From Amoebophrya sp. A120 (lineage: Eukaryota > Protista > Dinoflagellata), in the NCBI GenBank assembly GCA_905178155.1, contig CAJINV010000014.1, positions 359,181 through 423,180 of the forward strand: a DNA stretch of 64,000 nt, read 5' to 3'. Shown here piece by piece: positions 9,027 to 46,164 of this stretch (positions are counted from its first letter, which is position 1; each line of letters begins with the position of its first letter). Under the pieces are notes generated by a model. It was not told the origin of the DNA. It searched no databases and saw nothing but the letters and a program-made list of their open reading frames with translations. Position numbers and translations under genes: made by a program.

Positions 9027-12000
9027 TCACTTCAAAATGGACGTCGCTCTATGTCCACCCCGCTGTTGTAATAGCCGCGGCAGTGGATTTAGATTTTGCT
9101 GACCGCTCCCCGGACGAGATCCCTTCTTCATCACGCGATCGCGCCGCAAGGCGCTCTTCTGGAGGTCCAACCGCGTCGCGAGAGAAGTGCCGTGAAAGTC
9201 CTGCATCAGATTCTCCTTGAGATACTGAAATTTGTGTTCGCGGTAGTCGTCATTCATTTTAGTCAGCGGCAAGTTCTCCTCAGAGCTGTTTTCTCCGTCT
9301 TGTGTCTTGCCACAACTCGGGACTACTTCAAAAGCACCAGGAGTTGAGCGCTCCGCTGCCTCTGCGGCCTCGATTTCTTCATCTTCATCGCCCTGTTGTC
9401 CTGCTTCTTGTTTCATGATCCCTTCCACTTGTTTTTCGGTGCCGTGGAGATTCTTCTTCGCGGCTACCACTTCACCGATAGGCTATGGAAAGGAAGAAAA
9501 AGCCAACTTGAAGAGTCACTTCTCAATCTTGTTGCGCGAGTTCTTGTGCGGTGTCCAGGAAGATTATGATCGTGGTTTCGTTGCATACTGATCCAATGAA
9601 GTCGGGACTCTCGGGCGGTCCTCTGAGCCTCTACAGCTACAACGTGAGTCCTCTGAGCCACTCCAGCCGCTTTATGTTTGTAGCAGCTACAGAAGAACAA
9701 GAATCGCAAAGAACTACATTTAGATAAAATAAGGTACGAGTCATGCAGCAAATGTATCACCGTTACATCATCTCTCAGCGTATACTTAAAAACGCTGGAG
9801 ATAGGAAGAGGCGAGTTTTTTTAGGGCGGCTAAACGGGTTGGCAATCTGCATTCTAGTCAACAGAATCCAAACGGAGGCCGCCCACATTCTCGTGTGGCA
9901 CGTTCTTGTATAGATAGTAGTTGATCTTTCCGCTACTTGAGCTTTCGCAATGTTCTTGCAATAATTTAGATTTAGAAAATTGAGGCTCCAGGATCTTCAT
10001 CTGCACTTGCGAACATACACGGAATTCAACAAAGTGATCTCTTCTTACCCCACAGGAATCAATTAACCACGCTTAAGTCAAAAAGCTGGCTTTTTCCTTT
10101 CCTACTTCAGAGACGTCATCAAAGAAATCAGATTCATACTCGTCGCTTATTTCTCCGGCGCCGTCGTAGTTAGTCGTTCCCAGATCTGCTGACTTCTGTA
10201 TCGATATCGCCCCGATAGTTACACTGGATGTTATGTCTGCAGAGGATGTGCCACTACTTTGTCGCGCTCCATCCCCGAGCTTTGCGGTTTGTTTCGACAG
10301 AGAACTAGGATACGTTGAAGAAGTCATCTTTATTGGCGGTGACCCTTCACCCAGAATTTCCGCATTCGGCAACACTGCAACTCTCGCTATAAATGAAGAT
10401 GCTGCAGGAGCTCCTGTCATGTAGTCTTCTTGCCGTGAAGAAGGTTTTTTTCCCGTTTTTCCCATGGTGTTGTCTTCGAATTTTCTCCCTCGGTCCAACT
10501 CCCGCTTGCTCTGGTGCTGCTTGATGTTCTCCAAAAAGTGAGCGCCAGGGGCAGCAGAGTCGACATTTTGAACCTTTTCTTTACGAGGAAGACCTGGAGT
10601 TTCCTCCTCCTCTACTAGACTCGGAGACGACGACGACGATGTATCAAATGTAAAAATGTCTGGGTCTGGAAGATTAGAACTTGTCATGCTAAATCTAAAT
10701 GATTCAAAAATCTGTGTTGCGTGAGTGCCAAAAGCTGTCCGGTTTTGACCAAGTTGTGAGGGAGTTTCTCATGCAGGAAAGGCATGATAGAGACCTCAGA
10801 GAATCTGTCATGCTGGGTCTCGTATTCCAGACCTCATGGGTCATGGAAAGCCTGCATCACAAATCTTGCATTCTTCCAGACCCAGACATTTTTGCATTTG
10901 ATACGATGTTGACCAGGCTGATTGTTCCCCGATGTCCTCCGAGCTGTAGATCGAAAGAGGGGAGGTAACTGCCGGCTCCGGGATGTGTAAAATGTCTTGC
11001 TCGAATTTTTCCTGCAAAAACGTCTCGTCTCCTCGACACAGAAGCATATTTCCTGCTCCCTCGGAAGCAGTGACAGTGGTTTTTGGTTTTGGAGATGTTG
11101 AAACTGAAGCTGAAACAAGAACGCCCGAAGTGGATGCGATTTCGATTTCTGGTGACGACGGTTGCTGCGGCGCGTGTCCCGCCACCTCGTCGGACCGATT
11201 GTCTTCGAAGTCGTCGATTTCCGAATAGTGGTATACTGAAGAGGTTTGTTGTTGTTCCTGCAGGTGGTCCTCACGAGGACCCAGGACGCGTTTTTGTCCC
11301 CCGTCGACTGCTTCGTCTCGTTCTTGGTCCATTTTTCCGGCTGCCATGTTCTTATCCGTCGTCTGCCCATTTGATGTTGTGCCTGCTAGAATTACTATCT
11401 CCGCCCCAGTTTGCAGATCATCAGTTTCTTGTATTTCCACATGACTTCTTTTGCTCGTCCTGCTGGTCGTCAGACAAAACTCATCCGACGCGGTGGGAAT
11501 ACCGGCCGTTGTTGCTACGTCGTCCGCGGCAGCAATGTCACTATGGCTGCTACCACCTTTTGGCGTGGTGACTTCTAACACGGCGGCCGACGCTGACAAC
11601 GTTTCGCTCTCAGGAGCCAGAGTTGCAAAACGGCCCGGCTCTTCTTCATGTTCTTCAGGAGAAGTGGTAGTGGTACAGATCTGTCCAGAAGCTATTCCTT
11701 GTCCGACTGCAGGATGAGGACCAGGACCTGCCGTTGCAGCTTCCGCGTCGGTGTAGAAGTTCTCCAGTGGTTTATTGTCTTTCTCAGCAAGAAGATCTCC
11801 TTCTTCACTCTCTGCCTTTCCTACAGCAACATCGTTTTCCGCAATCTGCCTCTTCAGCTCCGCGATGTTCTTTTCGATTTTTTCTATCTCCGCCTGCTCG
11901 ACCTCCCCTTGTTCTCCGCCCAAGAAGGATTTTTGGTCTCCCACCTCCAACACCTTTTCGCCTACAAGACCTCCAGACGAGGAACGGAGCATCAAGTCCG

Positions 12001-14186: not shown

Positions 14187-15465
14187 TGGTAACCAAATGC
14201 GTGCGCGAAAATCTAACCAGCGCGAAAGCCTAGCCAGCCGCGCTTTCGCCGCGCGGCTGCCACCACCATTTCTTTTTAATTAGAACCCCACTTCTATCCC
14301 GGGTCATCGGAGGCTTCCGGATTCGCATTCAAAGCTTATCGCAGGAGCCTGCGGGCCGCCGCGGGCTCCACCACTTCCCCGCGGCCCTAAAGGGCCGCGG
14401 ACAACTACTGTCGCCCGCGGCGGCCCACAGGCTCCTGCGATAAGCATTGAANNNNNNNNNNNNNNNNNNNNNNNNNNNNNNNNNNNNNNNNNNNNNNNNN
14501 NNNNNNNNNNNNNNNNNNNNNNNNNNNNNNNNNNNNNNNNNNNNNNNNNNNNNNNNNNNNNNNNNNNNNNNNNNNNNNNNNNNNNNNNNNNNNNNNNNNN
14601 NNNNNNNNNNNNNNNNNNNNNNNNNNNNNNNNNNNNNNNNNNNNNNNNNNNNNNNNNNNNNNNNNNNNNNNNNNNNNNNNNNNNNNNNNNNNNNNNNNNN
14701 NNNNNNNNNNNNNNNNNNNNNNNNNNNNNNNNNNNNNNNNNNNNNNNNNNNNNNNNNNNNNNNNNNNNNNNNNNNNNNNNNNNNNNNNNNNNNNNNNNNN
14801 NNNNNNNNNNNNNNNNNNNNNNNNNNNNNNNNNNNNNNNNNNNNNNNNNNNNNNNNNNNNNNNNNNNNNNNNNNNNNNNNNNNNNNNNNNNNNNNNNNNN
14901 NNNNNNNNNNNNNNNNNNNNNNNNNNNNNNNNNNNNNNNNNNNNNNNNNNNNNNNNNNNNNNNNNNNNNNNNNNNNNNNNNNNNNNNNNNNNNNNNNNNN
15001 NNNNNNNNNNNNNNNNNNNNNNNNNNNNNNNNNNNNNNNNNNNNNNNNNNNNNNNNNNNNNNNNNNNNNNNNNNNNNNNNNNNNNNNNNNNNNNNNNNNN
15101 NNNNNNNNNNNNNNNNNNNNNNNNNNNNNNNNNNNNNNNNNNNNNNNNNNNNNNNNNNNNNNNNNNNNNNNNNNNNNNNNNNNNNNNNNNNNNNNNNNNN
15201 NNNNNNNNNNNNNNNNNNNNNNNNNNNNNNNNNNNNNNNNNNNNNNNNNNNNNNNNNNNNNNNNNNNNNNNNNNNNNNNNNNNNNNNNNNNNNNNNNNCC
15301 CGCTTCATTTCTGGCCATTTCCCTGACCTTCACGCCTCGCGGCGGTTGCCCTATATGGTAACGGCAACTGCCTTCGCGCTGCGTTTGCTAAGCAATATCG
15401 CAAGCGCGCAGAGCGCGCGCGCCGGCTTCGTGGGCCGGCGCGCGCGCGCACGCATTTGGTTACCA
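14187..15465. mobile_element. GC-rich TIR element spanning the assembly gap
   Basis: Perfect 21-bp inverted repeat tggtaaccaaatgcgtgcgcg at 14187-14207 and 15445-15465; internal foldback 14328-14451. Confidence 0.55.
14452..15298. other. Assembly gap
   Basis: Run of N. Confidence 1.
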
Positions 15466-21803: not shown

Positions 21804-24800
21804 TCATGATCCTAGCCTCGACAAGAGTGCAGTTTGCAAGTCGTTTTGTATACTGGAGTTTTTCCCGCTCCAATCAAAAGGTTCGCGGAAGTAGGCCCCA
21901 GGGGCCCGCCGGGGGACCACAAGAAACGCTTCATCTTGGAGTTGTGGTGTATCCGCATCAGAAGTTTTTGTGTATGCTCCATGCCCTCTTCTCTCCTGCT
22001 GCTGCTGAAAGTCATTTCGCCGACCCGCCACTTTTGCCGCCAGCTTCCTTTTGGCAAGTTCGAACTGCCTCTCCAGAAAGTCCACCACCTGCTGGCAAAC
22101 TCCGTCCGCGTCGTTATGCATTGCAAATATCCCTGGATGTCTGGAAGAGTGCAACTTGTGATGCTGCATCTGGATGCTCAAAAAATCTGCATTGCATAAG
22201 CAGCAAGGGGAGTCAAATTTGGCTACGTCGCGGAGAGGGCATTTGTCTTGCGGGATGCGCATCGATTTCGATAAGCGCTCAAAAAAATGTGTGAGGCTAC
22301 GGCATACATCACAGACATCACGAATCATCATCATGGAGAATGTGCATCGACAAACTTGTCCTCTTCCAGACCCAGACATATTTGCATTTGATAGTCGTGC
22401 ATCTGTTGCAACTTCACGGAGCTGGGGAACTCCCGAGCATACCGACACGCCGCGTTCCAATGTTTCAGGGCCTTTTCCTTCTGCTTTTGTAGGAAGAGTT
22501 GATAATCTTGATTTTCCCGCGGGTCTAACAGCATCTTCCTGTGGTTTCTACTACTGTTCGTGTTCCTCGTTGTATGGCAAGAAAAAATTGTTTCACTGTG
22601 AACTTGTGATGCAGAAAATGGAACACAGACCTATTTGTCTTTCTACACTTGCAAGACATTGCATTTTCAAGCGTGTTTTCCCTTGGGAAGCGCGCATGGC
22701 AAATTTTCTGTGTCATGAGTAAGGAACTTGTGATGCAGATTTTGCAAAATCACCACAGTGAAGCAGTTTTTTCGTGGGATATGTTGGAGATGATGCTGAC
22801 GCGTCGTCTTGTTGCTGTTGAAAAGAGTTGGACGACGCTGCTCCGAATCTTTGAAAGGCATTGTTCATCACAGGTGCATTCGTACTACTAGTACTACTAC
22901 CACTCGCCCCGCTGCTCAAGAAAAGCGCAGTCCCCGGACCACCAGCACCACCATGAGCGACATTATCCTGGTTGTAATTTGTGTCAAAATGGAAGGATTC
23001 AGCAACAATCTTTCCCTCGAACAGTGCCGGGTTGCCCTGGTTCACGATGAAAGTGGTTTTGAAGCGGGACCGCCAATTGACGGAAAAGTTTAAATTCTGC
23101 GAGTGCAGCGTGGACACGATGGTCAGGGTGATTTGGGCTTTCTCCATTTCGTCCGCGAAACACAGGAAAATGGTCTTGTTGTGGTATTTTTGTGCTGAGC
23201 TGGAGGATGAAGTGTTTTTTGTCACCATAGTACCGACGTTGTTCTTGTCGCCCGAACATAAATGCTGATCGTGAAGTTGTTCTCCAACATGCGATAAGCC
23301 GTCGTGGCTACTCCTGTAGTTAAATCGTTCGTCCAACTTCTTTTGCATCAGCTGCTGGAATTTCCTTGCCGCGCTCGCTGTTCGCAGGGGCGGCGAAATG
23401 TCTCCCGCGTCCTCCAAGACAGGGCGAATCAGTTCCTCTTGAAGCTCTATCAAGTGTAAAAATGTCTGGGTCTGGAAGATTCATGCTGTTTTTGCATGAC
23501 ACGCAAGGTCTGGCATTGAAGCTCTAGCATCACAGGTTTCGAGAAGCTTCCGCAATGCCGAATCCGCATGACAAATCCCCCACTTTGGTGACAGAAAGTG
23601 GGCAGCTTTTGCTACCTATGCATGAGAGATTTTTCTGTGTTCTGAAATGCGCATCACAAGTTGCATTCTTCCAGTCCCAGACATTTTTGCATTCCATAAG
23701 CTCCAAGTCCGTCGTCGTCCGGGGAGGCGTGAGGAAAAGCTCCTTATTGTGAGGAAAAATCCCCCCTCCCCATATCGAAAGCGGAATTTGTGTTGCTGTA
23801 TTTGAGTACACAAATCACATCTGTCTAGCTAGAGAGGACTGCAGACCCATATCAAGCCTGGGCAGAGATGCTTTGACTTAGGCGCTTAGCATGAGAAGCG
23901 TCCGTGATGTTGGCTCAACAACATGACAAACCGCCTCCATAATGGGACGGAAGCTGCTGCCCTTGTCTTCTTGCAGCACAAACGTGGTCTGTGACCTCAA
24001 ATCAGCAACACAAATTTTCGAAAGCCTACCTCTTCAATATGGGGAGGGGGGATTTTTTCTTGCGATACTCCTGTGTGGTCCTCGTTGCCGCGCCACCTTG
24101 TTCTTGCGCCGGCACATTACTGCTCAGCTCGGTGTTAATGTTATTGTCCTTTTATCCTGAGTAAAAACGTACCCACACCAGAGTCAGGATGAGGATTTTG
24201 CAACACAAACCTAGGAGCTCTGTGAGTCACGCATGACAAGTTGCACTATGCAGCGTAGTGCAGGTTAGCAAGTGTAGCCGCATCACAGATTCATCTGCTC
24301 ATCCTGTTCACAGCATCACAAATTCCAAAACACGATTGGAAATGGCTCTCATGCGGATGCGCATTACAAGTCTTCCTGTCTTTGCAAATCTGCATTACAA
24401 CTCTGGTGTGGGTACGTTTTTACTCAGGATACCTTTCGGTGGAAATTTATGTCGAATGTGGTGACCAACTTCGGGAACCACTGGACCACCTGGAAATATT
24501 TCCCAACCACGGGGTTCCAGTACAGTTGTCGCCGCTCATTCCAGGCCTCTTTGCACACGACGTTGATGCAACGCTGCAAGTTGTTTTTCACATTCTTAGA
24601 AGCAGCTCCGCTCTGCTCGTCCCTCTCGCTATAGCTGGTGACAGTGTGGTCGCAAAAGTGGTAGTGCTCCGCATGGCGTTTAAACAACTGGGTGCGGTAG
24701 TTCTTGCTGGTGTCCTCAAGAACGCCAGCAGTGGTTCTGGGGTCCCCTTGGTCCTCTTGGCCTCCAGCAGCGGCAGCGGCATTATTATTTCCACCGGTAT

Positions 24801-26710
24801 TCAATGTTCCTCGTGCTGGGCTAGTACTCACAGTGCTTTTCTCCGATAGAACTTTCTGCAGCAGCTTGTTCTGCATTTTCGCCAACAATTGCTCCAAGTA
24901 CCCGGGGGCGCATATGGCGTTCTCAAATGTTACATTCTCAACTGTTACATAAATTACTATCTAAACTGCAGCAGCTGGTCAAAAATGCATGCGAGGGGTA
25001 TGTTCGGGGGTATGTTCGGGGGTGTGTCAGGGGTATGCAAATGGAATTCAATCCCGACCTGAATACAAATTTTTGGCGAAAAAGCAGAAGGCGGGGTATA
25101 AACATACCCCGGACACACCCCAGACACACCCCAGACATACCCCAGACAGACCCCCGAACACACCCCAGGCAAAAAGTCCGAACATACCCCAGACACACCC
25201 CAGGCACACCCCGGGCAGACTTTCGGACACACCCCGGGCAGACTTTCGGACACACCCCGGACAGACTTTCGGACACACCCCGGCCAAGCTTTCGGACTTT
25301 GTCATGTGGGGTTTGGACCCGAAGCCCAGTCTGTCACGCGAGACCGTGCGGCCAAGGGGCGATCGAAAGCCCCTGGGTCATGGCGCGGAGACTATGTCCC
25401 CGCGCCATGACCCAGGGGCCAGCCCCAGCTGCGAGCGCTTCGTTCCCGGACACCGTGCGGCCAAGGCCAAGGGGCACAGAAACAGGTGCGCGCGCCCGGG
25501 TTTGGGAGAACAGGGGCAAGGAAGGACGCGTCCTCCCTTTGTCGTGACTAGTCCTTTGGGGGGGGCGCCCCGCCCAGGGGCGCAGAAACAGGTCCGCGCG
25601 CCCTGGTTCGGCGGAACAGGCGCAAGGAAGGCCACGCCCTCGGTTGGTCTTGGGTAGTCCTTTGGGGGGGCGCCCCGCCCAGGGGCGCAGAAACAGGTCC
25701 GCGCGCCCTGGTTCGGGAGAACAGCCCCCAGGAAGGCCGCGTCCTCCCTTGGTCGTGGGTAGTCCTTTGAGGGGGGGGCGCCCCGCCAAGGGGCGCAGAA
25801 ACAGGTCCGCGCGCCCGGGTTTGGGAGAACAGGGGCAAGGAAGGGCGCGTCCTCCCTTGGTCGTGACTAGTCCTTTGGGGGGGGCGCCCCGCCCAGGGGC
25901 GCAGAAACAGGTCCGCGCGCCCTGGTTCGGGCGAACAGCCTCCAGGAAGTCCGCGCCCTCGGTTGGTCGTGGGTAGTCCTTTGGGGGGGGCGCCCTGCCC
26001 AGGGGCGCAGGCAGAAACAGGTCGGTCCGCGCGCCCTGGTTCGGGAGGACAGCCTCCAGGAAGTCCGCGCCCTCGGTTGGTCGGCAATAGTCCTATGGGG
26101 GGGGCGCCCCGCCCAGGGGCGCAGGAACAGGTCCGCGCGCCTTGGTTCGGGAGAACAGCCCCCAGGAAGGCCGCGCCCTCGGTTGGCCGTGGGGAGTCCT
26201 TTGGGGGGGGGGGCGCCCCGCCGAGGGGGGCAGAAAAGGGCGCACTTTTCCAGGGGGGGCGCCGGCTCCACGGGCGGCAGGGCCATCCCGTTCTGTCGCA
26301 AAAAAAATAAAAATCCTGCCGCATCACGGGCAAGAAAAGCCACCGCGGGTGGCTCTTCTTCGCTGCAAGGTCGCAGCGCGGGGACTCTGTCCCCGCGCCA
26401 TGACCTTGTTTGTCATGCAAAATTGGCATCAGCCTCCACTTGGTCAAGGTGCTTAGCATGACACATTTTCAAAGGGCTAAACAGCAGGATAATCTGTGGG
26501 AAATCTGTGATGCGAAAGCTGCAATCTTGCCACTTTCACTGTTGCCATTCTTGCATCACAAACTCATTTAACAGTTGAGAATGTAACGTTTGAGAACGCC
26601 ATAGCGCACTTGGTCGCCCAGCGCTCCAGCGCTGCATGCTCGGAGAAGGCAGGAGGTGGAAAAACGTCGTCTGACAAAAAAGCACGGCGCGGTCCTTCTG
26701 CGTTTGCCAT
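21804..26710 (-). CDS. Hypothetical 614-aa protein, 7 exons, six TIR introns
   Basis: Exon sum 1845 nt; junctions TKCA|PGYLEQ, FHRK|DNNIN, TTQE|LFLT, DLEL|QEEL, SSPT|RNTN, QMHD|ADGV are all in frame. Confidence 0.8.
22115..22393. mobile_element. TIR introner element, main family
   Basis: TIR; perfect DR gtcgt. Confidence 0.9.
22573..22781. mobile_element. TIR introner element
   Basis: TIR tat..ca.gaaaaaa.tg.ttcactgtg; DR cgttg/tgttg. Confidence 0.85.
23448..23698. mobile_element. TIR introner element, main family
   Basis: TIR; perfect DR agctc. Confidence 0.92.
23745..24067. mobile_element. TIR introner element, second family (AAAAATCCCCCCTCCCCATAT)
   Basis: TIR; perfect DR ctcct; same end type recurs at 63726. 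Confidence 0.92.
24153..24431. mobile_element. TIR introner element
   Basis: Perfect 32-bp TIR tatcctgagtaaaaacgtacccacaccagagt; perfect DR ccttt. Confidence 0.95.
24913..26603. mobile_element. Giant (1691-bp) TIR introner element with GC-rich repeat cargo
   Basis: 35-bp TIR (1 mismatch) tatggcgttctcaaa.gttacattctcaactgtta; perfect DR gcgca. Confidence 0.92.
25100..26240. repeat. GC-rich tandem repeats: about 23-bp units, then about 7-8 units of 105-114 bp
   Basis: gactttcggacacaccccgg x3-4 (25218-25298); ggggcgcagaaacaggtccgcgcgccc recurring near 25470, 25577, 25682, 25790, 25896, 26002, 26116. Confidence 0.9.
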
Positions 26711-27773
26711 TCTTCTCGAGGAGATCTTCGAGTTCGTCGAAATGAAATCGAAATACGCTATAAAGAAGACGAGAACTTCTATAAAAACGCTGTCACCATA
26801 AAAGAGTAAAGAATCAAACACGATGAACCAACAGAGACATACTACAAAACAGCTTCTGTAAGAATGGCGAAGACTTGTGTAGTTGTAGAAGTTCACTTTT
26901 AATTTCAAGCATTGTCATAATGCATTCTTGCAGGCATAGAAGATCTTGCTGTCACAAAAAGAGAAAACACAGGCCAGAAACGAATAAGCAAGAAAAGCAG
27001 AAGGTCAACAGCTGGATGAACACGCCTGGATTTTACCTGGAAACTACGAAGAAGAAGTCATAATTCCTGATCGTACAGATTTCCGAACAGTCCGAATCCA
27101 TGAGCATTTCAATTTCTACTATGATGAAGATTGCTGCTTCTGTCTGCTATACTGCTTGATTATACACGGAATTATGTCGCCCCAGCTTCTTGATGTTGTT
27201 TTGAACTTTTCGTACACCACTGCGGGCGTTTGCAGAGTTTTCAGGCGATAAAGTTGTTTATGTTCTTGCTGGAGCTCGTACGACGGAACTGTCAACACTT
27301 TGACAAATTACCCCAAATTCAACTTTCCATGGATAGCTGAGGTGACGCCAATCTCTATAATTTTTCGGGTAGAAAAATTAAATTCAAGATATTTTTGACG
27401 GGGGTAATCTACTTTGTGCTGCTGGTGAGAATGATGAAAACAAAAGGCACAAAGTGGTCGAGGAAGCTCAAAGGTCGACAAAAAAAAAGGACTTGTCCAT
27501 TTTTTCACGAAACAAATATTGGGGGGTGGCAATGGGTACATATGAATCAATAAATGGTACACATGATATGTCGTTTTACTAGTGCTGGACGATGAAGTGC
27601 TAGGGTAATCATACATAATGTCTCGCTCCAAAATCCAACAAATAAATATGTCTGAACTTCGTCGAGAACCAAAAACATGTCTTCCACTGAAAAATGGAAC
27701 TAGCCGTACTTTCCGCCTTAGGCCGAGCTCTATAAGTAGGTCGTCCAGACCACCTTGTTTTCATTTAACAAAA

Positions 27774-29046
27774 GAGGAGGAGGAGGATCCTTCACACCTG
27801 TTTTTAGCTATACATATTGCTACTCAAGTGGAACATGATGTCGCAGACCACCCGGAGGAAACGAGCAGGGAGGCACCGCTCTCAGGGGAAACACCTACTC
27901 GGCCAGCATTTGCTCCTGTTCCTTGTACCAGACGCGCCATGTTGCAACTACCACTCTTCGAGTTGCGGGCACTGAGGTACACTGTTGCAGCTTCTTCTCT
28001 TCGAGCCGCGGCCGGGTGCGCTCCGTCTGCTCACAAGCTTACCCTCTGTGGTGCGGCTGTCTACTCTGGGACGGTCCGGGGCTTGGGCGAGTTTAGGGTC
28101 ATATCGGGCACCATATGTGTTAGGTGCTTGTCCCTTAACTCTGTAGACACTGCGCTGCCTCCGCCCTGGAGCAGCTTGAGGCAGAGCTCACCTCCCGATT
28201 TTGTCACGATCAGGCGCTTCAAGGTGGTAGCATATTTGTCATGCTGCCACCTTCTCTCGGGTGGTTCTGGCCGGACCTTCGTCTCGTTCTACAAAGTCCA
28301 CGTCTACGAATGCAAGACGCGAACTTTAGCTGCGCCCTAAAAATCTGAGATTCTTCCACTAGGCGGCTGCGCTGGATCGTGGGGAATTCTAATATGTATG
28401 GATCCGCACCTTGAATCGAGAAAAGATAGAGATACATCTGGAATCTCTATCAGAGAAAATCAATATCAGGATCTATCGACATCTCAGCAGCTCCTGGTCC
28501 AGATGTATATCTTTTCTTCATTCTCCAGGCTCCGCGCCCTCGTTTTCCGCTTTCTCGTCGTGGTCTAGTTTGCTTGTGCTTAGACTAGGCGTGACCTGCT
28601 AGCTTTCGTTCTTGCACCTTGTACGCTCGTGGCAGTGGAAGAGAAGATGTGAACCCGTCCAAAGAAGATGTTGAGAGCCAGAGCCTGCCACAAGAAGATG
28701 AAACTCTGCCGGCGCTGTGGAGAGGGAAATCGCCGACAGGGACCATATTTCTGGATGGAATGCGCACACAGACGCACGGGGCGCTGAGGCTCTACCTACT
28801 TTCTACTGTAAATGGGCACAGCTGACCCGCCACGTACGGGTGTCTAACTATTTTGCTTCGAAACTCCATCGCAAGGAGTCGGGGGAGATACCGACGTGGC
28901 GTCAGTGGTGGTAAATGTGTGTGTGCGATGGGTCTAACAACTACTCTACGGCATAGCTCCCCCTGTTCTAGATTTTTCGGATCTCAGGCAACAAGGAAAA
29001 GCCTTGAGCCAAAATGGCTACGGGCTTGAGCCAAAATGGCTACGGG
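27774..29046 (-). mobile_element. Spliced-leader-headed non-coding retroposon with 20-bp TSD
   Basis: TSD cttgttttcatttaacaaaa at 27754-27773 and 29047-29066; 5' end two SL copies; 3' end GGATCCTCCTCCTCCTC. Confidence 0.82.
29003..29046 (-). other. Two tandem full-length dinoflagellate spliced-leader sequences
   Basis: Revcomp reads (CCCGTAGCCATTTTGGCTCAAG)x2; the known DinoSL is DCCGTAGCCATTTTGGCTCAAG. Confidence 0.95.
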
Positions 29047-29330
29047 CTTGTTTTCATTTAACAAAACATGTACTTCTTGGGTGCAAAACAAAAAAACCCC
29101 CCGCTAGCCAAGGACTAAATGTAAATACGTATACTAAATTGCACACAATAAGCCTTGATGTGACCCAGTGCGGCAATATCAGTAAGCATTGCCCCATGAC
29201 GCAGTCGTGGGGAGTGGTTCTAAAGTATGACCTCACTACATACAAAAGGAATTTTTACATAGTATGAATATCGCCTACTACTTGTCGTTTGTTAAATACA
29301 GTACGACCTCCGTAGTTTTCTCTTTAGAAC

Positions 29331-32300
29331 TCAAACATTTCCCCAGGCCTGATCCGTGACCATCGCGTTGAAGCTGCCCACGCAATCCGCGAAGTGGGGC
29401 GACACGTTGGTGCCAACGTCCCGCAAATTGTCCATCATTGCGCGGAGCCCCAATTCCGTCTCCCCGGTTCCACTTACCGTTCCGTGGGCCTGGAAGATTT
29501 GCTGCAGCTGCGCTCGCAGGAGCATCCACTCAGTGACGCCGACGAGGCAGATGGTAGAGCGAATGCGGGTCACATCGTTAGGAATCAGGTTGTCGCCGGT
29601 GTTGCACGGAGTTCCGTCTCCGAGGACGCAGCCGCCCGGAATCTGGAGGTCCAACTCCGTCGCGACGATGGACCGTGGAGTGTTGCTATCCAAGAAAAAA
29701 AAAGCATTCAGTTCTGTAAATCATCCTCTATGGATATTAACATGAAATAAAGACAGCCACACTTGTCAGGGTGGACGTGCTGTCACAGCAGCTTTTCTTG
29801 TCATGCGAACAGAAACAGAATCTGTCCTGCGGTCAGCGTCAGCCGAAGGATTACATTATAAACTGCGCAGTCTTTTTCTTGGATAGGTATCTGGGCCATC
29901 TTCCGGTAAATTATTGGTATCCAATAAGTTCTGCAAATCGGGCTCGTTGCACGCGCATCCTGAATAAAATAACCTCACCCTCCATTTGCATCTTCAAATT
30001 TAACTGATGCAATTCGATATGTCTGTCATAATGCGTGATAGGATACCACAGAGCCATAGCGCGTGACAAGTTGAGACTGATGCGGGCGGGGTGATGGTAA
30101 AATTTTTATTCAGGATATAGGCCCAGACCACAATCCGTCGTGGGCGTGACTGCACTGGTGGCCGTAGTTAGCTTTGCGAGCTGACGCTTGGTTTGTGTTG
30201 GGCGGGGTGGCAGGAGCGGCCTCGCCCGGGCGTTTCGGCATGGGTCGGTCGGCCTTGACGACGCGGTAGCGGTGCCCCGCGCGCAAGCGGCTCTCCGGGG
30301 TGTGCCAAGCTCCACCTGGGCCCCTGTTTCCGGAATGGTAGCCGTCGGACTGCAGGGAATGATACTTGACGCACACTTTGTCATCATTGGCATTTGTAAA
30401 CGAGTCGCGGTCCGCCATTGGAAAAGGAAGCTGCGCGGTTAGCTGGGCGTCAAGCATCAGTTTACGGGGAACCTGCACGGTAAAGAAGTTCCACACCTCG
30501 CCCCTACGAACGTGAAAGACAAACTGGACCCCAGCGAGCGGCGCGGCGGGAGAAAAGTACGTCGCAAGAATGGGGGCGCGGAACGCAAACTCGTACCTGG
30601 CGCCCTCACCAGAGCCCTGTACCCACGGACGCCGGGGTAGCGACCCATCAGTTTGTGGGAACTCAACCGGCTGGCGCAGATTTGCGCTGCCATAAGTGTC
30701 GTCGCCGGAACCTGGTACCCGCTGCCCGACGTCCCGATTACTAAAATAGTCGGTGTCTACCACTTTGACAAGAGCCTCTGGCGCATAGGCGGGGTCAAAA
30801 TCAAACTCGAAGTGGGCTGCTGCGGCAAGCGCCTTCGGCGCAGGCGGTGCTCCAGGTGGCGCAGGCGGTGCTCCAGGTGGCGCAGGCGGTGCTCCAGGTG
30901 GCGCAGGCGGTGCTCCAGGTGGCGCAGGCGGTGCTCCAGGTGGCGCAGGCGGTGCTCCAGGTGGCGCAGGCGGTGCTCCAGGTGGCGCAGGCGGTGCTCC
31001 AGGTGGCGCAGGCGGTGCTCCAGGTGGCGCAGGCGGTGCTCCAGGTGGCGCAGGCGGTGCTCCAGGTGGCGCAGGCGGTGCTCCAGGTGGCGCAGGCGGT
31101 GCTGCGGGTGGCGCAGGCGGTGCTGCGGGTGGCGCAGGCGGTGCTGCGGGTGGCGCAGGCGGTGCTGCGGGTGGCGCAGGCGGTGCTGCGGGTGGCGCAG
31201 GCGGTGCTGCGGGTGGCGCAGGCGGTGCTGCGGGTGGCGCAGGCGGTGCTGCGGGTGGCGCAGGCGGTGCTGCGGGTGGCGCAGGCGGTGCTGCGGGTGG
31301 CGCAGGCGGTGCTGCGGGTGGCGCAGGCGGTGCTGCGGGTGGCGCAGGCGGTGCTGCGGGTGGCGCAGGCGGTGCTGCGGGTGGCGCAGGCGGTGCTGCG
31401 GGTGGCGCAGGCGGTGCTGCGGGTGGCACAGGCGGTGCTGCGGGTGGCGCAGGCGGCGCTGCGGGTGGCACAGGCGGTGCTGCCGGTGGCGGAGGCGGTC
31501 CTCCGGGTGGAGGAGGCGGTCCTCCGGGTGGAGGAGGCGGTCCTCCGGGTGGCGGAGGCGGTCCTCCGGGTGGCGGAGGCGGTCCTCCGGGTGGTGGGGG
31601 CGGTCCGGGTGGCGGAGGCGGTCCGTGCGGCGGATGCGGTCCGGGTGCAGGAGGCGGTCCGGGTGCAGGAGACGGTCCGGGTGCAGGAGACGGCGCAGGT
31701 TCCGGCGGGAGGTCATCTCCGGGATTCAACTGCTGCGGGATAGGCAAGCTGTGAAACGTCCCGTAGGCATTGGCCAACCGTTGCAACTTTTCGTTCTTGA
31801 AATAAGTCGCATGCCCATTCAACACCTCGTCTTCTGTCAAAACCCACACTTCCCGAATGTTCCAAGTCATTCCGTTTGTATCAGTGGCCGGGTAGTGACA
31901 CAGACCCTTGCTTTCCTCGTCCACAGCGCCCGTCTGATAGTCTTTCGTGTGGCACAGGAGCATCTCCGGAATTTCGTTTGGGTTTTTGAAGTAGGTACTA
32001 CTCGGATGGTTTTCCGCGTCGTTCCAAACGGTATAAAACTCCCGCAGTTGCTTATTGGGAAACATCTTCGGAAGGCGCTCCACCATTTTTTCTTGGTTGT
32101 CACCCGGCTCTACTTCGTCGCGACCATCGTCGCTTCTCTGTTGCTCCGCCTGCGCTTGCTGCAGTTGCAGGAACGAAGCCGAAGATCGAGCCGCCGCTGC
32201 ATTTTTTCGCTGAGGTAGGTTCGCTGGTAGTTCAGCCAACGGCCAATCGTCCGATAGCAGTACAGTCCTCTCGCCGCCCCGCTCGTCTGCTGCGATTCTG

Positions 32301-32815
32301 CAGGGCCGGTTCAGCTTTTCCAAGCTGAGGTCCTGACCATTCTCCTCGTACAGGCTCTGCACGGAAACGTTGCAAACCTTACTGGCAGCCAGATTTTCGT
32401 AAGTCTGCCCATCGGATAACACAACCGGGTCGTGGAAACGATTGCTCTCTTCCTGGAGAAACGCATTCAACGACCCAAGGTCCTCCCGGTTCTGCATCGC
32501 GGGAGGGTCGTGAGCTGGTGCCGGGTTGTGAGTCTCATTGCCGGGCGAGTTTTTGTTGTTGTTCGCCACAACAACCACAACCGCGACAACAGCACCAATA
32601 ACGAGGACTGCGGCAATCACGATCAGGGTGATGATAAGCGGTTTATTTTTGGAGCAGCAATTTCTATCATTGGCTTCCGTGGAGCTTCTATGTTCGGGGT
32701 GAAATTCGTGCTGCCCTGTCAAGGCTCTCTCGTGCTCACCCGCCGCAGCCGCATACCCGTTGCGTCCCTCCTGGTGACGGTACGGTGCGGGCACTGTGCG
32801 GTCTCTACGCGTCAT
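29331..32815 (-). CDS. Family member A: TM, 2 U-box-like domains, Pro/Ala stalk, C-terminal Cys-containing domain (1037 aa, 3 exons)
   Basis: First ATG at 32815; TM PLIITLIVIAAVLVIGAVVAVVVVVA; removing two elements makes the C-terminus colinear with the uninterrupted exon of paralogue C. Confidence 0.8.
29687..29885. mobile_element. TIR introner element (degenerate DR)
   Basis: TIR tatccaagaaaaa; removal gives GPDT|TPRSIVATEL vs paralogue GEDTSPKSIIATEL. Confidence 0.8.
29956..30117. mobile_element. TIR introner element (degenerate DR)
   Basis: TIR (c/t)atcctgaataaaa; removal gives WSGP|CNEPDLQN. Confidence 0.8.
30837..31700 (-). repeat. Coding minisatellite, mostly 21-bp units (PPAPPAA / PPAPPGA / PPPPPGG)
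   Basis: Tandem ggtggcgcaggcggtgct(cca/gcg). Confidence 0.97.
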
Positions 32816-34639
32816 AATTGTAGTTGCTCTCTGAAGATTCTGCTGGGTAGAAGTACCAATCACGTAGACACAAATTCAGTGCAAAATCTGTTTGACTCGA
32901 AGAAGCCTTGGGTTCTTTATTAGCTCTATTCCAAAACTAGACGTAGACTTACTTAAGTACACACTCAAAACAAAAATATGAAAAATCGGTTTATCGTAGT
33001 AGCTTCTTTGAATATTTCTTGACGCTGAGGAACAGGATTGCTTCTCTAATAACAGTTCAATATAGATAATTCTGTCGAAAGAGAAGAATATTGTACAAAA
33101 CTAGCAGCAACAGCACTTTTCCAAAAGTTTCTGTAAGATCACATTCACACCAGAAAAAAAATATAGTGCGTGAGATTGATTGCAGTGATTGTTTTTTACT
33201 CGTTTATTGCAGAGCGGTAGATCTTCATTTCGCAAGTGGAAGGATTGTGATCTCACGATCTTCGCTTTTGTTCTTGATCCATGCGTCGTGCACTTGTTCT
33301 TCATGATCATTCTCTATTTACTTCCCTCTCTCTTGATCTTGCAGCGTTTCGATCGACAAATGCTCACACCAGGAGAGGCAATACTTTCAGGCCCGCTTAT
33401 TTAGCGTTGTCTCTCCTGGTGCCGCGATCATTATTATATCTTGATCCGACCACTCTGTTTCTTGATCTCGACCAGCAATTTTATTTTATCGCGAAAACCC
33501 GAGCCCGAGCCTGTCTCGGTTTTGTTCTGTACTTCACCCTGGCCTGTGCTGATTTGGCCGGAGGGTCGTGTTCTTGGAGGAGCAGCCCCGGAGGGTCGTG
33601 TTCTACTTGGAGGAGATCTACTCTCCTGTTTAGTGTTGGCATTAAGACTGTTTTCGCATACAAATCGATAAGAGCTTGAACACGCTTGCCTCCAGCGTCG
33701 TTCCGGGCAGTGGATCGAAGTGTAACTAATAGGATGTGAGTACAAATTCTTTTCACGATGTTCTTTCCTCTTCGTCAAAACAATAGGGTCCTGCTGAACT
33801 GTCTATGCCATGTATACAACACTCCTTCGCATTCACCAAAATCAGACACATCGTACTATCTATAAGTAGGTCATCCAGACCACCTTGTGCTTCTTGGGTA
33901 CAAAACCCACCTCGTTTAGCAAAGCATGCTGTACTTCTTGGGTACAAAACCACACCCGCTGCGTCCCTCCTGGTGACGGTACGGCGCGGCTACTGTGAGG
34001 TCTCTACGTGTCGTAATTGTAATTGCTCTGTGAAATTAGCTTCTGCGGGGTAGTGCCAATCTATCACGTAGACACAAACTCAGTGTAAAATCTGTTCGAC
34101 TCGAAGCCTTGGATTCTTTCTTAGCTCTATTCCAAAACTAGAGCTTGTTTGTTTGTTTGTTCGTTTGTTAGTGCTGGAGTCGTGGTTTCCGTGTGAAGGT
34201 TTTACCTTCCTCTCACGATGCTACTGTTAGTTCAAGAAAAATACTAGGTGGCTACAGCTTTGGCCTCGTAAGCCTGAGAAAAAGATACAGGAGAGCTATT
34301 TTTCGTCACTAGAGAGAGGCTTTTCGAAAGTTACTAAAAACTCGAAGTTGTTGAAAAAGTAAAAGTTTCTTCAACGTAGGAGCTGTTGTTTCTGAAAAAG
34401 TGAAGTCTATATCTGCGAGAAAGGTTGATTTTGTTTCGTGAAAAGAGGTAAGCTACTAAGTTATTCCTGGTGGAACTTGTGTCGACCAGCTGCAAGTCAA
34501 AGCTAGACCTTCTTCTACACACACAAAGCATAAATATGAAATATCGGTTTATCGTAGCAGTTTCTGTAAATATTTTTCGACGCAAAGGAACAGGAGGGCT
34601 TCTCTAATAACAGACTCAAGTAGACGTAGAAACATAAAG

Positions 34640-36642: not shown

Positions 36643-38597
36643 TTAACGAAAAGCACCTCCAAAAGCGCCTCCAATAGTGCCTCCATGAACAGGCGAAGGC
36701 ATATGTCCTCCGTTCCCAAAATGGATATTCCCAGGATTGACATGCACGGCACCAGCACCACCGTTAGCACCTCCGGGGGGAGGAGCGACGTGGACGCCAC
36801 CACTAGGAGTGATATTCACCACACCAGCACCACCGGTAGCACCTCCGGGGGCAGCGACGTGGACGCCACCACTAGGATTGATATTCACCACACCAGCACC
36901 ACCGGTAGCACCTCCGGGGGCAGCGACGTGGACGCCACCACTAGGAGTGATATTCGCCACACCACCAGTACCACCGTTAGCACCTCCGGGGGCAGCGGCG
37001 TGGACGCCACCACTAGGAGTGATATTCGCCACACCACCAGCAGCACCATTAGTGCCCCCATTGTTTCCATCGCCGCCCGGCCGGGGGAACGGGGAAGGAA
37101 CAAGAGGCAGCACAGGAATATCCTCTCTAGGGACAGGCTGCGTCGGGGGCACGGCCATGTTGTGGAAGGTCCTGTAGGCATTCGCCAACTGTTGCAGCGT
37201 TTCGTTCATGAAATAAACCGGACTAGTATTTTTAGCTAGCAGCTCCTGCTCCTCTTCCGTCAACAACCAGACTTCCGGCATGTTCCACGTCCTTCCCTCA
37301 GTGTCGATCGCCGGGTATCTGCACAAAGCCTTGCTGTTCGCGACCACAAAGCCGGTCTCGAGGTGCTTCGTCTCACACAGAAGCACCTCGGGAATGTTGT
37401 TTGAGTCTTGGAAGTGAGTACTGGGATGCCCCTCGGCGTCGTTCCAGGCAGTGTAAAAGGCTTGTAGGTTGTGATTGGGAAACATCTTCGGGACCCGTTT
37501 CACTACCGTTTTCTCTGTGCTAGCATCTTCGTCTTGATGTTGGTCCCGCGCCGCAGTCGGCTCGTGATCCTCTTTATGCTGGCGCACTCGGGGAAGAAAC
37601 GAAGCAGTGGCTCCTTCTACCTTCGTTTCCTGATGTTGCACCACCGCAGCTGCTGCACTTCTGTGCGGTATCTGGTCCATGTCCACCGGCCAAAGAGCAA
37701 TTCTCCCGTCTATCGAGAGGAAATAAAACTGTCTCAGGTTTTTTCAAACTTCTATATTTGCGCAGGAACTCGTCCTTCTATGGTGCAGCGGCTTTTCTTT
37801 TTTTCTAGTTATTATGTTGGAGATGCAACTAGAAGGCCTCGGGTGGTCGTAGTACTTACTCTTCATACGTCGTGCTCGTGCCTCTACCTGTTGCAGCTGT
37901 TTGAAAAATTCGAAATCGAAACACGACCCTTTCTTGTGTTGCTGAGTCGATTTCGATCTGTGAAAATAAGGCTGAGACAGTTAAATGCTTTCCCTGCCAT
38001 ACTTTCGGGGCCGTCAGGTTGACCTCCGTCATGATCATCCCCCCCAATCGTGCAGCGGTTGAGTTTCTCCAGATTCAGCTCGCCACTCTCATCGCGCAAA
38101 CTCTGCAGCTCGACGTCGCACAGCTTTTCCGCCTTCTTATTTTCGTACGTTTGCCCATCGGATAACACAACCGGTTCGTGGAAACGATTGCTCTCGTCCT
38201 GGAGAAACGCATTAAGCGACCCGAGGTCCTCCCGGTTCTGCATCGCGGGGGGATCATTTTCTGGTTGAACTTCGTCATTACTGTTGTTCACCATAACAAC
38301 CACAACCGCGATGACCACACCGATAATGACGACTGCGGCGAGCACGATCAGGGTGATCACCAGCGGTTTATTCATCGAGCAAGAAGATTTTTTCTTCGAG
38401 ACAGGAGCTTCCTCTTCTTGGACTTCGAGTTCAGGCTCGTTATCCAAAAAAGCATCTCCTTCGCCCCCAGCAGCAATTTTGTCAGCATGACGAAAATAGT
38501 ACGACCCTTGGTCGTGCTCCTGCAGCTGCCGGCTAGGCGGCGGAGGTGCAGCGATCCCCGCCGCACGACGGTCAATAGTGGTGTTGTGAGACGACAT
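36643..38597 (-). CDS. Family member D: TM, 2 U-box-like domains, Gly-rich 23-aa repeats, no C-terminal domain (552 aa)
   Basis: ORFs 37884..38597 and 36643..37686 join across element 37711-38001 (GPE|RRIALWPV). Confidence 0.75.
36745..37050 (-). repeat. Coding repeat, about 69-bp units (GGAGVVNITPSGGVHVAAPGGAT)
   Basis: About 4 tandem copies. Confidence 0.9.
37711..38001. mobile_element. TIR introner element (degenerate)
   Basis: tat...ggaaa...aactgtctcag at both ends; DR ccgtc/ctttc. Confidence 0.72.
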
Positions 38598-40373
38598 TCT
38601 TGATGATGATGATGTCGGTTTGTAGTTTTTTTTTTTGGAAATGGTGAAAAAAATTGATGAAGGTACTACAGTTCTAGAGAGTTGTACTTCTACAGAATGG
38701 CAAATACAACAAAGCGGTCAGGAGAAGGTAGGTGTACTTAGGAACAAGAACCCCTGCACACAAGATGAGATTTATCATGTAGTAGACACAGGCACAGCAA
38801 CGTCCTCGGCCGAAAAAATCAAGATTCAGTTTTTTTTTCCAAACGCACTCGGACCACGACGGGTGGACAATTTTCATAAATTTACAAACATATTAAATGC
38901 GTAAAAGCTTACTTTGATCATATCTATGGTTATGGGATCGTCATCGAAATCGCGGCACATCTACATTTTCGCTAGCCCAGTACTTCTTTATGCTCTACTT
39001 GTGCTTCGGTTTCTTTTTTGATATGTTATCATTTCAATAGATCTTCACGACGGCGCTGACCTCTCTTTATCCGCTTCAGATCGACGATCGCTGTTATGAT
39101 CTTGTGTTCTTCCTGCATCGTGGCTGCACTACGAGGAGGACTTCTGGACTTTTCGACAGTTGCACAACCCCTGGTCGTGTTGTGCTTTTTGCCTTTGTTG
39201 ATATGTAATCCGTTTTTTCATCTGGAGCTTCCAGCTCACTTTCAGTTTGACAGCGGATCTTGTCGTAGTTGTTCCGAACATCAAGCAACAAAAACAATTT
39301 TCGCCAACATAATGGACCCGAGCGGGGACGAGGAAAAGAAACCATAAAAATTTTACTTTTTTCAAAACAAGACTTTATTTCATTCCGGGTCAAATGCGGG
39401 AGGTCGAGACTTTATTTCATTCCGTGTCTATGTATAATGGTGCATACGCTCTCTCGATCATTCGGATTTCCGAACAATTGGTATGTTGTGCTTTACATCA
39501 TGAGTAGTTTTCTGATTGTGCGCCACTATGTATGTTTCATGTCTACTATGAAGATCAAGATGTATGTGTAGTACTGTCTGTCTACTATAATACTGCTCGA
39601 TTGTACACGACGTGACGCAGCTTTGCTCTCATCTTCTCACCACCCCTGTGATTGCGGTGGCATAGTATTTTTTTTTCAGATGATTATACAGTAGTTATGC
39701 TGGATGTAGTATGTTGTAGCGATTTTTTCCATTTTCCAAGCGTAGCGATTAAATTTTCCGCGATTAACTTTTCCATGCTATTAAAGTACATCCTTTCTAG
39801 TAAATTTTCCACGGGGACGGGCGGGCGCAAGAGTTCTCCAGGTGTTTGTGGTGTTGTTCTATCTTGACAACAATCAAATAACACAAGGGTTAGTAGTCCA
39901 GGGAGTTCAAAACTCGACTCAGAGAAGACGACGCGCTAGGGGTGCGTGGCAATGGGCAAACTTATGAATGTTGAATCGTTGAGTGCCTTACCCAACAACT
40001 GACTGGAGCAATTATAAATGAGTTGTAAAACTAAAGAATTATACACGAAGAACCTTGATAACTATACACGAAGAAACTTGATAGTAGAAAAGTACATGCT
40101 GTAGTGGAGTGACTCTGACCCAAAACTGTACCGCCCATTCTCACTTTCAAAACAAGTAAAACTCCTGCGCCGAAAAGAACTACTCGCCGCACTTCCCAAC
40201 TCTAGCTCAATCGAGTCGGAGGGCCCGCTATACAGGTAGGTCGTCCAGACCCCCTTTTCGTTTTTAGGAAAACAAAGCGATAGGAGTTGAAGTTGTTGTG
40301 CCCTGTGGATGTGCTACGTCTTGTTAAAAACATACCGCCAAGATATTTTTAGTTTTGCTTTTCAATATACTAC

Positions 40374-43978
<3,605 letters not shown>

Positions 43979-45342
43979 AATTGTAGTTGCTCTCTGAAGA
44001 TTCTGCTGGGTAGAAGTACCAATCACGTAGACACAAATTCAGTGCAAAATCTGTTTGACTCGAAGAAGCCTTGGGTTCTTTATTAGCTCTATTCCAAAAC
44101 TAGACGTAGACTTACTTAAGTACACACTCAAAACAAAAATATGAAAAATCGGTTTATCGTAGTAGCTTCTTTGAATATTTCTTGACGCTGAGGAACAGGA
44201 TTGCTTCTCTAATAACAGTTCAATATAGATAATTCTGTCGAAAGAGAAGAATATTGTACAAAACTAGCAGCAACAGCACTTTTCCAAAAGTTCCTGTAAG
44301 ATCACATTCACACCAGAAAAAAATATAGTGCGTGAGATTGCAGTGATTGTTTTTTACTCGTTTTTATTGCAGAGCGGTAGATCTTCATTTCGCAAGTGGA
44401 AGGATTGTGATCTCACGATCTTCGCTTTTGTTCTTGAACCATGCGTCGTGCACTTGTTCTTCATGAGCATCCACTATTTACTTCCCTCTCTCTTGATCTT
44501 GCAGCGTCTCGATCGACAAATGCTGATGCTCGCACCAGGAGAGGCAATACTTGGAGGCCCGCTTATTTAGCGTTGTCTCTCGTCCTGGTGCCGTGATCAT
44601 TATATCTCGATCCTACCACTCTGTTTCCTGATCTCGACCAGCAATTTTATTTTATCGTGAAAACCCGGCCCCGAGCCTGAGTCGGTTTTGTTCTGTACGT
44701 CACCCTGGCCTGTGCTGATTTGGCCGGCGGGTCGTGGTGTTCTTGGAGGAGCTTGCACAGCAAGATCAAGATCTATTCTCCTGTTCAGTGTTGACATTAA
44801 GACTGTTTTCGCATACAAATCAATAAGAGCTTGAACACGCTTGCCTCCAGCGTCGTTCCGGGCAGGGAAACTGCTAATTTGGATTCAAGTGCAACTAATA
44901 GGATGTGAGTACAAATTCTTTTCATGATGTTCTCTCCTCTACTAGGGTCCTGCTGGCGATGTATATAACACTCCTTCGCATTCACCAAAATGAAAATCAG
45001 ACACATCGTACTATCTATAAGTAGGTCATCCAGACCACCTTGTGTTTCTTGGGTACAAAACCCACCTCGTTTAGCAAAACATGTTGTACTTCTTGGGTAC
45101 AAAACAAAGAAATCCCTCGCTAAGCAAGCACTAAATACTTACTTTACTCCTGCGCTACACAATAAGTCTTGATTTGACCAAACAGCAACATCAATAAGCA
45201 TTGTGTCGTGGGGAGTGGTTCTAATTCTAAAATATGACCTCACTACATAAAAGAAATCGGAGCTGTTTTTGCGTGGTATGAATATCACCTACTACTTGTC
45301 GTTTGTGAAATACAGTACGACCTCCGTAGTTTTCTCTTTAGA

Positions 45343-46164
45343 ACTCAAACATTTCCCCAGGTCTGATCCCTGACCATCGCGTTGAAGCTGCCCACACAAT
45401 CCGCGAAGTGGGGCGACACGTTGTTGCGGACGTCCCACAGATTGTCCACCAGTGCGCGGAGCCCCAAGTCTGTCTATCAAGTGCAAAAGTGCTTGGGTCT
45501 GGAAAGGTGTAGACTTGTCACGCAGATTTTCCATGACCCATGAGGCCTGGAATGCGGGACTTAGCATGACAGAATCTGCGAGGTCTCTGCCATGCCTAGT
45601 ATCCTGCATGAGAAACTCCCTTCCACCTTGGTCAAAAGTGTGCCGCTTTTGGCACTCATGCAACACGGATTTTTGCATGCTTCAGATTTACAACCATGAC
45701 AAATTGCAATCTTCCAGACCCTGACCCAGAGATTTTTGCAATTCATACCGTCTCCCCGGTTCCAACATTCACCGCTCCGTGGGCCTGGAAGATATGGTGC
45801 AGCTGCGCTCGCAGCAGCATCCACTCGGTGACGCCGACGAGGCAGATGGTAGAGCGGATGCGGGTCACATCGTTAGGAATTAGGTTGTCACCGGTGTCGC
45901 ACGGAGTTCCTTCCCCGAGGACGCAGCCGCCCGGAATCTGGAGGTCCAACTGCGTCGCGACGAGTGACCGTGGAGGGTGATGATAAGCGGTTTATCTTTG
46001 GATTTTCTATTCTTGGCTTCCGTGGAGCTTCTATATTCGGGGTGAAATTCGTGCTGCCCTGTCAAGACCCTCTCGCCCTCACCCACCGCAGCCGCACCAT
46101 ACCCGCTGCGTCCCTCCTGGTGACGGTGCGGCGCGGTGACTGTGAGCAGGTCTCTACGCGTCAT
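45343..46164 (-). pseudogene. Internally deleted family copy
   Basis: N-terminal sequence (KPLIITL) fused out of frame near 45970 to the last-exon sequence. Confidence 0.7.
45475..45747. mobile_element. TIR introner element, main family, absent from three paralogous sites
   Basis: TIR; DR ctgtc/ccgtc; empty sites near 29456, 40499 and 48867. Confidence 0.93.

Follow-up and report, generated by a model that had tools for sequence, protein, structure and literature searches.

A low-copy, spliced-leader-headed non-coding repeat in Amoebophrya sp. A120, probably a non-autonomous non-LTR retroposon

Results

Genomic setting and structure of the insert

The window, meaning the whole stretch of 64,000 nucleotides that was analysed, carries long, intron-poor ORFs and numerous short elements with terminal inverted repeats (TIRs). 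In its ORFs, TIR elements and DinoSL it resembles the compact syndinian genomes of PMC7789003; here and below, statements on published work refer to the sections consulted of each paper. Seven of the eight ORFs of 600 or more codons lie on the minus strand, which is also the strand of the element described here. The element stands in sense orientation and starts about 280 nt downstream of the stop codon of a host gene. A proline-rich family neighbours it. The features of the locus are the following, in the 5' to 3' order of the element, with the two paralogous sites at the end.

29331..29600, minus strand: 3' end of the coding sequence of the upstream host gene, which has the same orientation, with its stop codon at 29333-29331
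29047..29066, minus strand: target-site duplication (TSD), 5' copy, 20 bp; its final 4 nt, CAAG, are also the final 4 nt of the spliced leader (SL)
29025..29046, minus strand: distal DinoSL copy, full 22 nt
29003..29024, minus strand: proximal DinoSL copy, full 22 nt, abutting the body
27816..29002, minus strand: non-coding body, about 1190 nt, multi-copy
28407..28531, minus strand: long predicted hairpin within the body, -44.7 kcal/mol, weakly supported
27774..27815, minus strand: module of 42 nt at the 3' terminus, tail included, also present on contig L001
27774..27790, minus strand: tail GGA(TCC)4TC; other copies exit at 27774 or 27775
27754..27773, minus strand: TSD, 3' copy, 20 bp, starting with TTTT directly behind the tail
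45014..45475, plus strand: paralogous segment without the insert, about 21 bases longer at the site and 78.7% identical with the flanks once these are joined
33859-33950: second paralogous segment without the insert, matching the joined flanks in two pieces

The 1273-bp insert (27774-29046) is enclosed by an exact 20-bp direct repeat (27754-27773 and 29047-29066), as claimed in the original prediction. Both copies of the repeat are identical 20-mers, the adjoining outer bases differ on both sides, and the chance of such a repeat at a given site is about 8e-13. The insert has no LTR or TIR. Read on the minus strand, it ends in a simple-repeat tail, GGA(TCC)4TC at 27790-27774, without poly(A); this end and the two exact SL copies at the head were both recovered as described from the sequence earlier. 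At this one site the TSD starts with T, and the nearest upstream T-run lies at about -19 to -22, with none near -10.

When the flanks were joined across the insert, the alignment with 45014-45475 crossed the junction (78.7% identity, 478 columns, E 2e-115). In both paralogues, the stretch equivalent to the TSD contains about 21 additional bases, which makes them near, inexact empty sites. The earlier claim of uninserted paralogous sites thus stands in that the joined flanks match both of them, but neither is an exact empty site.

Copies in sequencing data

Fourteen sequencing runs matched words of the window, six of them with at least half of the words; eight runs (X1, X2, X5-X8, X12 and X13) were used. 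X5 comprises DNA-like contigs of up to 95 kb, of unrecorded kind, and X6 is a DNA-like set from the same sample. These two sets may be the source of the assembly of the window, so that they confirm the structure of the copies yet are not independent of the assembly. X1 and X2 are contig sets whose RNA nature was guessed; strand and transcript starts are unreadable in them, and they were read without a silent-stretch control.

The element is present in several copies, as had been predicted. Contigs leave it at 27774/27775 into other flanks in X5 (at least 7, among the 12 of 43 loose ends listed), in X6 (6, from a complete list of 7 loose ends) and in X2 (1). Sequencing depth in X5 is 272-479 at the listed mid-body places vs 45-47 on flank contigs. 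At 27952-27990 in X6, a near-identical contig has a depth of 136 and a diverged one of 96, vs 23-27 on flank-anchored contigs. The diverged subfamily is about 90% identical, with 12 differences in 123 nt on an X6 contig, and a decayed fragment shows 21 differences in 112 nt. Together, these data suggest two subfamilies, with some 6-10 long copies between them, and decayed fragments in addition, depth being a rough guide and not a copy number. Outside these sets, a metatranscriptome (X7) gave a single contig whose depth of 4.5 is too low to be of use, and no contig of a metagenome (X8) matched.

Every listed 3' exit falls at 27774 or 27775, one base apart, so the tail length looks fixed across copies, contrary to the variable (TCC)n tails that had been anticipated. 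The 3' junction is bridged by contigs of X1 and X2, while those of X5 and X6 extend only 29 nt into the element there, less than the 31 nt set by the bridging rule. At the other end, an X5 contig (28994-29323) whose depth is that of a single copy reads with 0 differences from the 5' flank through the TSD and both SLs, and an X1 contig spans the 5' junction and both SLs with one difference. Contigs thus cross both junctions, and none of the three cases named beforehand as contrary to the prediction (a single copy, a coding retrocopy or a cDNA chimera) was borne out.

Spliced-leader head

The insert opens on the minus strand with two exact 22-nt DinoSL copies (29046-29025 and 29024-29003), the only matches in the window to the full SL or its 15-nt core at up to 2 mismatches (chance expectation for one SL about 8e-9). 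Tandem Repeats Finder (TRF) reports them as a tandem of 2.2 copies at 29003-29050. The last 21 nt equal the DinoSL of PMC5585692, in which the first base is D (U, A or G); here it is C in both copies and at one other locus.

Two further X5 contigs depart from the element within its head. One does so behind 29024 and represents another locus with one whole SL and a different flank; the other departs behind 29013 and represents a locus with only the last 11 nt of the SL on the same body start. Since no X5 contig fits two places, both include the body, which makes three loci or more where an SL meets the body at the same joint. SL number differs among these three loci (two, one and partial), in line with the variation foreseen in the original prediction.

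Repeated recycling of DinoSL retrogenes leaves a relict signature of 22+15 nt (37 nt; PMC12014239). The tandem found here is 22+22 nt and so lacks that signature. The TSD and the SL both end in CAAG, so that slippage, while the element inserted or later, may have duplicated the SL locally. Such slippage, or trans-splicing onto an upstream AG, can explain the double SL without two ordinary rounds of recycling.

Coding content, folding and known-RNA tests

The longest ORF on the sense strand has 72 aa from ATG, which bears out the limit given earlier, and 79 aa from stop to stop. Copies differ by 1-nt indels at 27804, 27823, 28198 and 28338. Neither the 8 sense frames nor the single antisense frame searched matched Pfam. 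Short sense ORFs, frame-breaking indels and the lack of a Pfam match indicate that the body is non-coding. No reverse transcriptase (RT), endonuclease or RT remnant was found in any frame of the element. An antisense stop-to-stop frame of 243 codons (27609-28340), which the original prediction did not mention, was rejected as a gene: it had no Pfam match, none of 1215 candidate homologues reached E ≤ 0.01, and other copies carry 1-nt insertions at 28198 and 28338.

The head is not of tRNA, 7SL or 5S type, in agreement with the earlier reading. ARAGORN returned 0 matches, Rfam returned 0 at the gathering threshold and 4 chance-level matches at E ≤ 5, and no box A/B pair was found at the head with consensus motifs; a tRNA or known structured-RNA head was rejected. 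Folding z-scores of -2 or lower were obtained in 4 of 15 body windows vs 1 of 10 flank windows, and folding was otherwise unremarkable. The fold of the 3' module was not significant (z -1.55 and -0.40). A conserved 3' stem-loop was discarded, being neither significant nor common to L001, and doublet substitutions of the diverged subfamily, considered by eye as compensatory pairs, had no surrounding stem.

A 3' module on an unrelated body

A scan of metagenome_contigs with 21 nt from the 3' end gave a single match, L001 (JACKZZ010006360.1). It aligns with the last 42 nt of the element only, with 39 of 42 columns identical, and 18 of 21 outside the search seed. The similarity ends at 27815, and upstream of that point L001 has an unrelated body of about 365 nt (41% A). 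Alignment of the two bodies is at shuffle level, as 149 of 200 shuffles score as high. An X6 contig independently departs from the body at 27815, the boundary of the module. An 8-bp repeat may bound the L001 element, with a chance of 4% within 400 nt and 18% within 2 kb. L001 also has TIR repeat families of the window (70-98% identity) and therefore comes from the same or a related lineage. The 3'-end pattern had 0 matches in viral_contigs and genome_contigs, and the 5' joint pattern had 0 in viral_contigs.

Elements that depend on a 3'-stringent LINE are recognisable by a short 3' end common to different bodies (PMC5786205, PMC6007223), and 3'-end sharing between SINEs and LINEs, as well as microsatellite tails, is established (same sources). 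The 42-nt module is inferred to be a candidate RT-recognition signal. As to the original prediction of a 3' tail shared with a LINE, the 42 nt recur on the unrelated L001 body, but no RT family was found among the 6 ORFs of L001 and 12 ORFs of the window that were checked, and no RT-encoding LINE could be linked to the tail.

Expression hints

Contigs of X1 and X2 cover this copy and its flanks, and include none of the diverged subfamily. X1 holds the SL on unrelated bodies, as expected of a transcriptome. The coverage in both sets fits read-through from the host gene. The raw RNA runs X12 and X13 yielded 0 reads on the window, which carries no weight either way. As X1 and X2 show just 1-2 flanks, most copies may be silent.

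Discussion

Comparison with known elements

The copies are interspersed and have the same 3' end, the insert has a TSD and a simple tail, and no RT or endonuclease is encoded, as in non-autonomous non-LTR elements. The element works like a SINE, to which it was first likened, but is not one under the definitions of SINEBase (PMC3531059): at 1273 bp it is longer than 1 kb, its roughly 6-10 long copies by rough depth are below the 100 required outside repeat-poor genomes, and it lacks a tRNA, 5S or 7SL Pol III head. With SINEs, and especially RTE-related ones (PMC3531059, PMC6007223), it has in common the head-body-tail build, a short shared 3' module, a simple-repeat tail and a TSD starting with T, but it differs from them in its length of 1273 nt, its approximately 10 copies and the lack of a tRNA/5S/7SL head. 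The RTE-related signature combines a microsatellite tail with a TSD whose first base is a T that follows a T-run at a distance of about 10 nt (PMC6007223); half of it is present here (the T start and the (TCC)n tail), whereas there is no T-run at -10.

DinoSL retrogenes (PMC5585692, PMC12014239) are likewise copies derived from RNA that carry an SL at their 5' end in the genome, and a minority of them have it in tandem. They are protein-coding, with relicts of 22+15 nt, whereas the element is non-coding, with 22+22 nt; it ends in a (TCC)n module and not in poly(A), and it forms a family with many flanks and with subfamilies. With sense ORFs of at most 79 codons and frame-breaking indels, it is not the copy of a protein-coding mRNA by which DinoSL retrogenes are defined.

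RIME, NARTc, Bov-A and RTESINE (PMC5786205, PMC1874656) are alike in being non-coding, LINE-dependent and presumably transcribed by Pol II, with a TSD and a shared 3' end. In the present element, by contrast, no 5' part could be traced to a LINE. The trypanosomatid elements among them have an internal promoter and produce RNAs that stay unspliced, in the authors' view a means of preserving the 5' end (PMC1874656). They are thus reported to avoid trans-splicing in a host that also uses an SL, whereas the present element carries the SL inside its TSD. EhSINE1/2 of Entamoeba (PMC3716655) are also non-coding protist elements mobilised by a LINE, with TSDs of up to 16-20 bp and pyrimidine-rich targets, but they are 0.5-0.7 kb long, have far more copies and a known partner LINE, and no SL is mentioned in the sections consulted. 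TE transcripts of Hydra (PMC12220107) also use the host SL machinery, but there the SL is shown on TE RNA only, and the consulted sections describe no genomic family with an SL as its fixed head.

Interpretation and alternatives

The insert is one recent copy of the family. With a probability of roughly 0.55, this is a low-copy, SL-headed non-coding family of non-autonomous non-LTR retroposons, copied from an SL-trans-spliced RNA by a LINE RT that recognises the 42-nt module. An internally deleted, bipartite LINE derivative (5' UTR plus 3' UTR, of the RIME, NARTc or Bov-A type), which inherited its SL from a trans-spliced parent LINE RNA, is the strongest competitor, though an unlikely one. 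The RTE, Ingi, Vingi and R2 clades all have such derivatives, whose transcription is ascribed to Pol II (PMC5786205); a microsatellite tail and a long TSD are compatible with this origin, and LINE RNAs can be trans-spliced, given that in Hydra an SL is present on about 30% of the Iso-Seq reads from TEs (PMC12220107). Against it, there is no RT remnant in any frame, the alternative body of L001 has just 42 nt in common with the element, and the two X5 contigs listed as departing from the 5' part (before 28803 and 28875) run on, judged by eye, in a body-like and not an ORF-like manner; these exits were judged on 12 of 43 loose ends, and a LINE branch may be among the rest. Taking the SL-headed family and the LINE derivative together, a non-autonomous retroposon family of either origin is quite probable.

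Alternatively, one or a few SL-capped cellular lncRNAs might have given rise to dead processed pseudogenes, every copy being made from the parent RNA. Dinoflagellates commonly have SL-tagged retrocopies (PMC5585692, PMC12014239), and some body windows fold better than shuffles. Telomerase RNA is one candidate parent: an Amoebophrya strain is reported to have the TTTAGGG repeat (PMC7789003), and the body has a 9-nt match, at 28099-28091, to a template for it (5 of 300 shuffles; five repeat types tried), but this motif is short and was picked post hoc. The lack of poly(A), the constant end in a microsatellite module found at the end of an unrelated body as well, the absence of any credible Rfam match at E ≤ 5, and collapsed subfamilies with several copies each, which suggest more than one source, render a pseudogene origin improbable. 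It is harder still to see the head as an SL RNA gene (exon plus start of the intron) comparable to the snRNA-headed SINEU and possibly carrying the promoter function of that gene. GC, a donor type that dinoflagellates accept, directly follows the SL, a hairpin comes at once after it, and the SL begins with C both times here as well as at one other locus. That hairpin, however, has a z-score of about 0 and so lacks significance, Rfam yielded no SL family, and there is no U-run terminator within the 50-60 nt typical of SL RNA (59 nt on average, PMC12584245), so that this origin has little probability. As for an assembly or cDNA artefact, X5/X6 are possibly the source of the assembly and overlap the 3' junction by just 29 nt, but the TSD is exact, a contig at single-copy depth runs across both SLs and the 5' flank with 0 differences, X1 and X2 bridge the 3' junction, and other flanks exist; the likelihood of an artefact is considered negligible.

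A possible cycle of propagation

For an SL-headed family mobilised through its 3' module, the cycle would start from the copies seen at several loci, of which this one follows the host stop at a distance of about 280 nt, in sense orientation, within a co-oriented gene block. A source copy would be transcribed by Pol II, either by read-through or from the TTTG motif of the SL, with no Pol III head; TTTG of the SL has been proposed as a basal promoter (PMC5585692). Trans-splicing would then fix the 5' end. The simplest acceptor would be the terminal AG of the genomic SL, in which case the same SL-body joint would be restored in each round. A 3'-stringent LINE protein would bind the 42-nt module and start reverse transcription from a nick, which would account for the 20-bp TSD, and 5'-truncated copies would come from incomplete copying. 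The second SL of the present copy would have arisen locally, through CAAG slippage or through trans-splicing onto the AG just upstream of the genomic SL. More tentatively, this may be a promoter-less class of SL-headed retroposons, in which the SL renews itself through its AG and unrelated bodies are mobilised by one 42-nt (TCC)n module.

Novelty and significance

Each part of the build of the element has a precedent, and an SL on TE RNA is not new. The suspicion that no such family had been described agrees with a literature search outside most subscription papers and Repbase, which returned no SL-headed non-coding retroposon family. SL heads on Penelope-like elements were considered and dropped, the consulted text of PMC8557442 containing 0 SL terms; likewise, the consulted sections of PMC5890265 report no SL on SymbioLINEs. 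Those of PMC7789003 give a single complete SL-like coding sequence per genome and do not mention full SLs at the heads of repeats.

The 5' end of a retroposon can be regenerated in known ways by Pol III heads, internal Pol II promoters or self-cleaving ribozymes. If the present reading is true, an SL head would be a fourth way to define it, and the family would show that trans-splicing can regenerate a retroposon 5' end in each round. Full 22-nt SLs at the heads of repeats would, in addition, affect SL-based counts of retrogenes and SL-primed libraries. The 42-nt module offers a direct probe for the partner LINE and its 3' stringency. SL-tagged retrocopies, in the words of PMC12014239, "may be mediated by retrotransposons", and the family offers a handle on which enzyme makes the many such copies of dinoflagellates.

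Sequence variation at the element

Contigs from three sequencing runs were compared with the window, one run being DNA-like (X6) and two taken by guess to be RNA (X1 and X2). At position 27887, within the body of the retroposon-like element, the window has G versus A in all X6 and X2 contigs listed there; the long X1 contig agrees with the window. This G is likely a variant private to the window's element copy. At window 29024, the outer end of the proximal spliced-leader (SL) copy, an X1 contig with a depth of about 1090 carries two SLs with the joint short of one base; this contig may stem from a different organism present in that sample.

The element body also contains a telomere-template-like motif, chosen post hoc and matched in 5 of 300 shuffles:

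28099-28091, minus strand: 9-nt stretch able to template the TTTAGGG telomere repeat

A second bearer of the 3' module

The 42-nt module forming the 3' end of the element was also found on an unrelated body in the metagenome contig JACKZZ010006360.1 (L001):

L001 4485-4865, minus strand: 365-nt A-rich element, its 3' end being the shared 42-nt module

This A-rich element, possibly flanked by an 8-bp repeat, is a candidate for either a 5'-truncated LINE 3' end or a second non-autonomous family.

Surrounding sequence

ORFs in the window are broken up by many short elements with terminal inverted repeats (TIRs) starting with TA, which resemble the introner elements described in PMC7789003. The same TIR element families are present in L001.

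2161-2424, 10641-10904, 22362-22394, 23447-23479, 24153-24431, 24913-26603, 55880, 59830: short TIR elements
25466-26236: tandem array of 7 GC-rich 106-bp units, lying within the TIR-bounded element 24913-26603
14328-14451: inverted repeat, 61-nt arms, 2-nt loop, adjoining an 847-N assembly gap
3861-6122, minus strand: Misato-like tubulin-family protein, long unbroken ORF (PF10644, E 2e-10)
29331-32875, 36643-38717, 40374-44038, 48742-51696, minus strand: proline-rich tandem family, predicted membrane-anchored proteins

The inverted repeat may be a fold-back made by assembly. In the proline-rich family, long repeats with periods of 21, 18 and 69 nt differ from copy to copy, and there is also a conserved stretch, which appears U-box-like when judged by eye. 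Three members searched against Pfam at E 0.1 gave no match. The family possibly represents surface proteins of the parasite.
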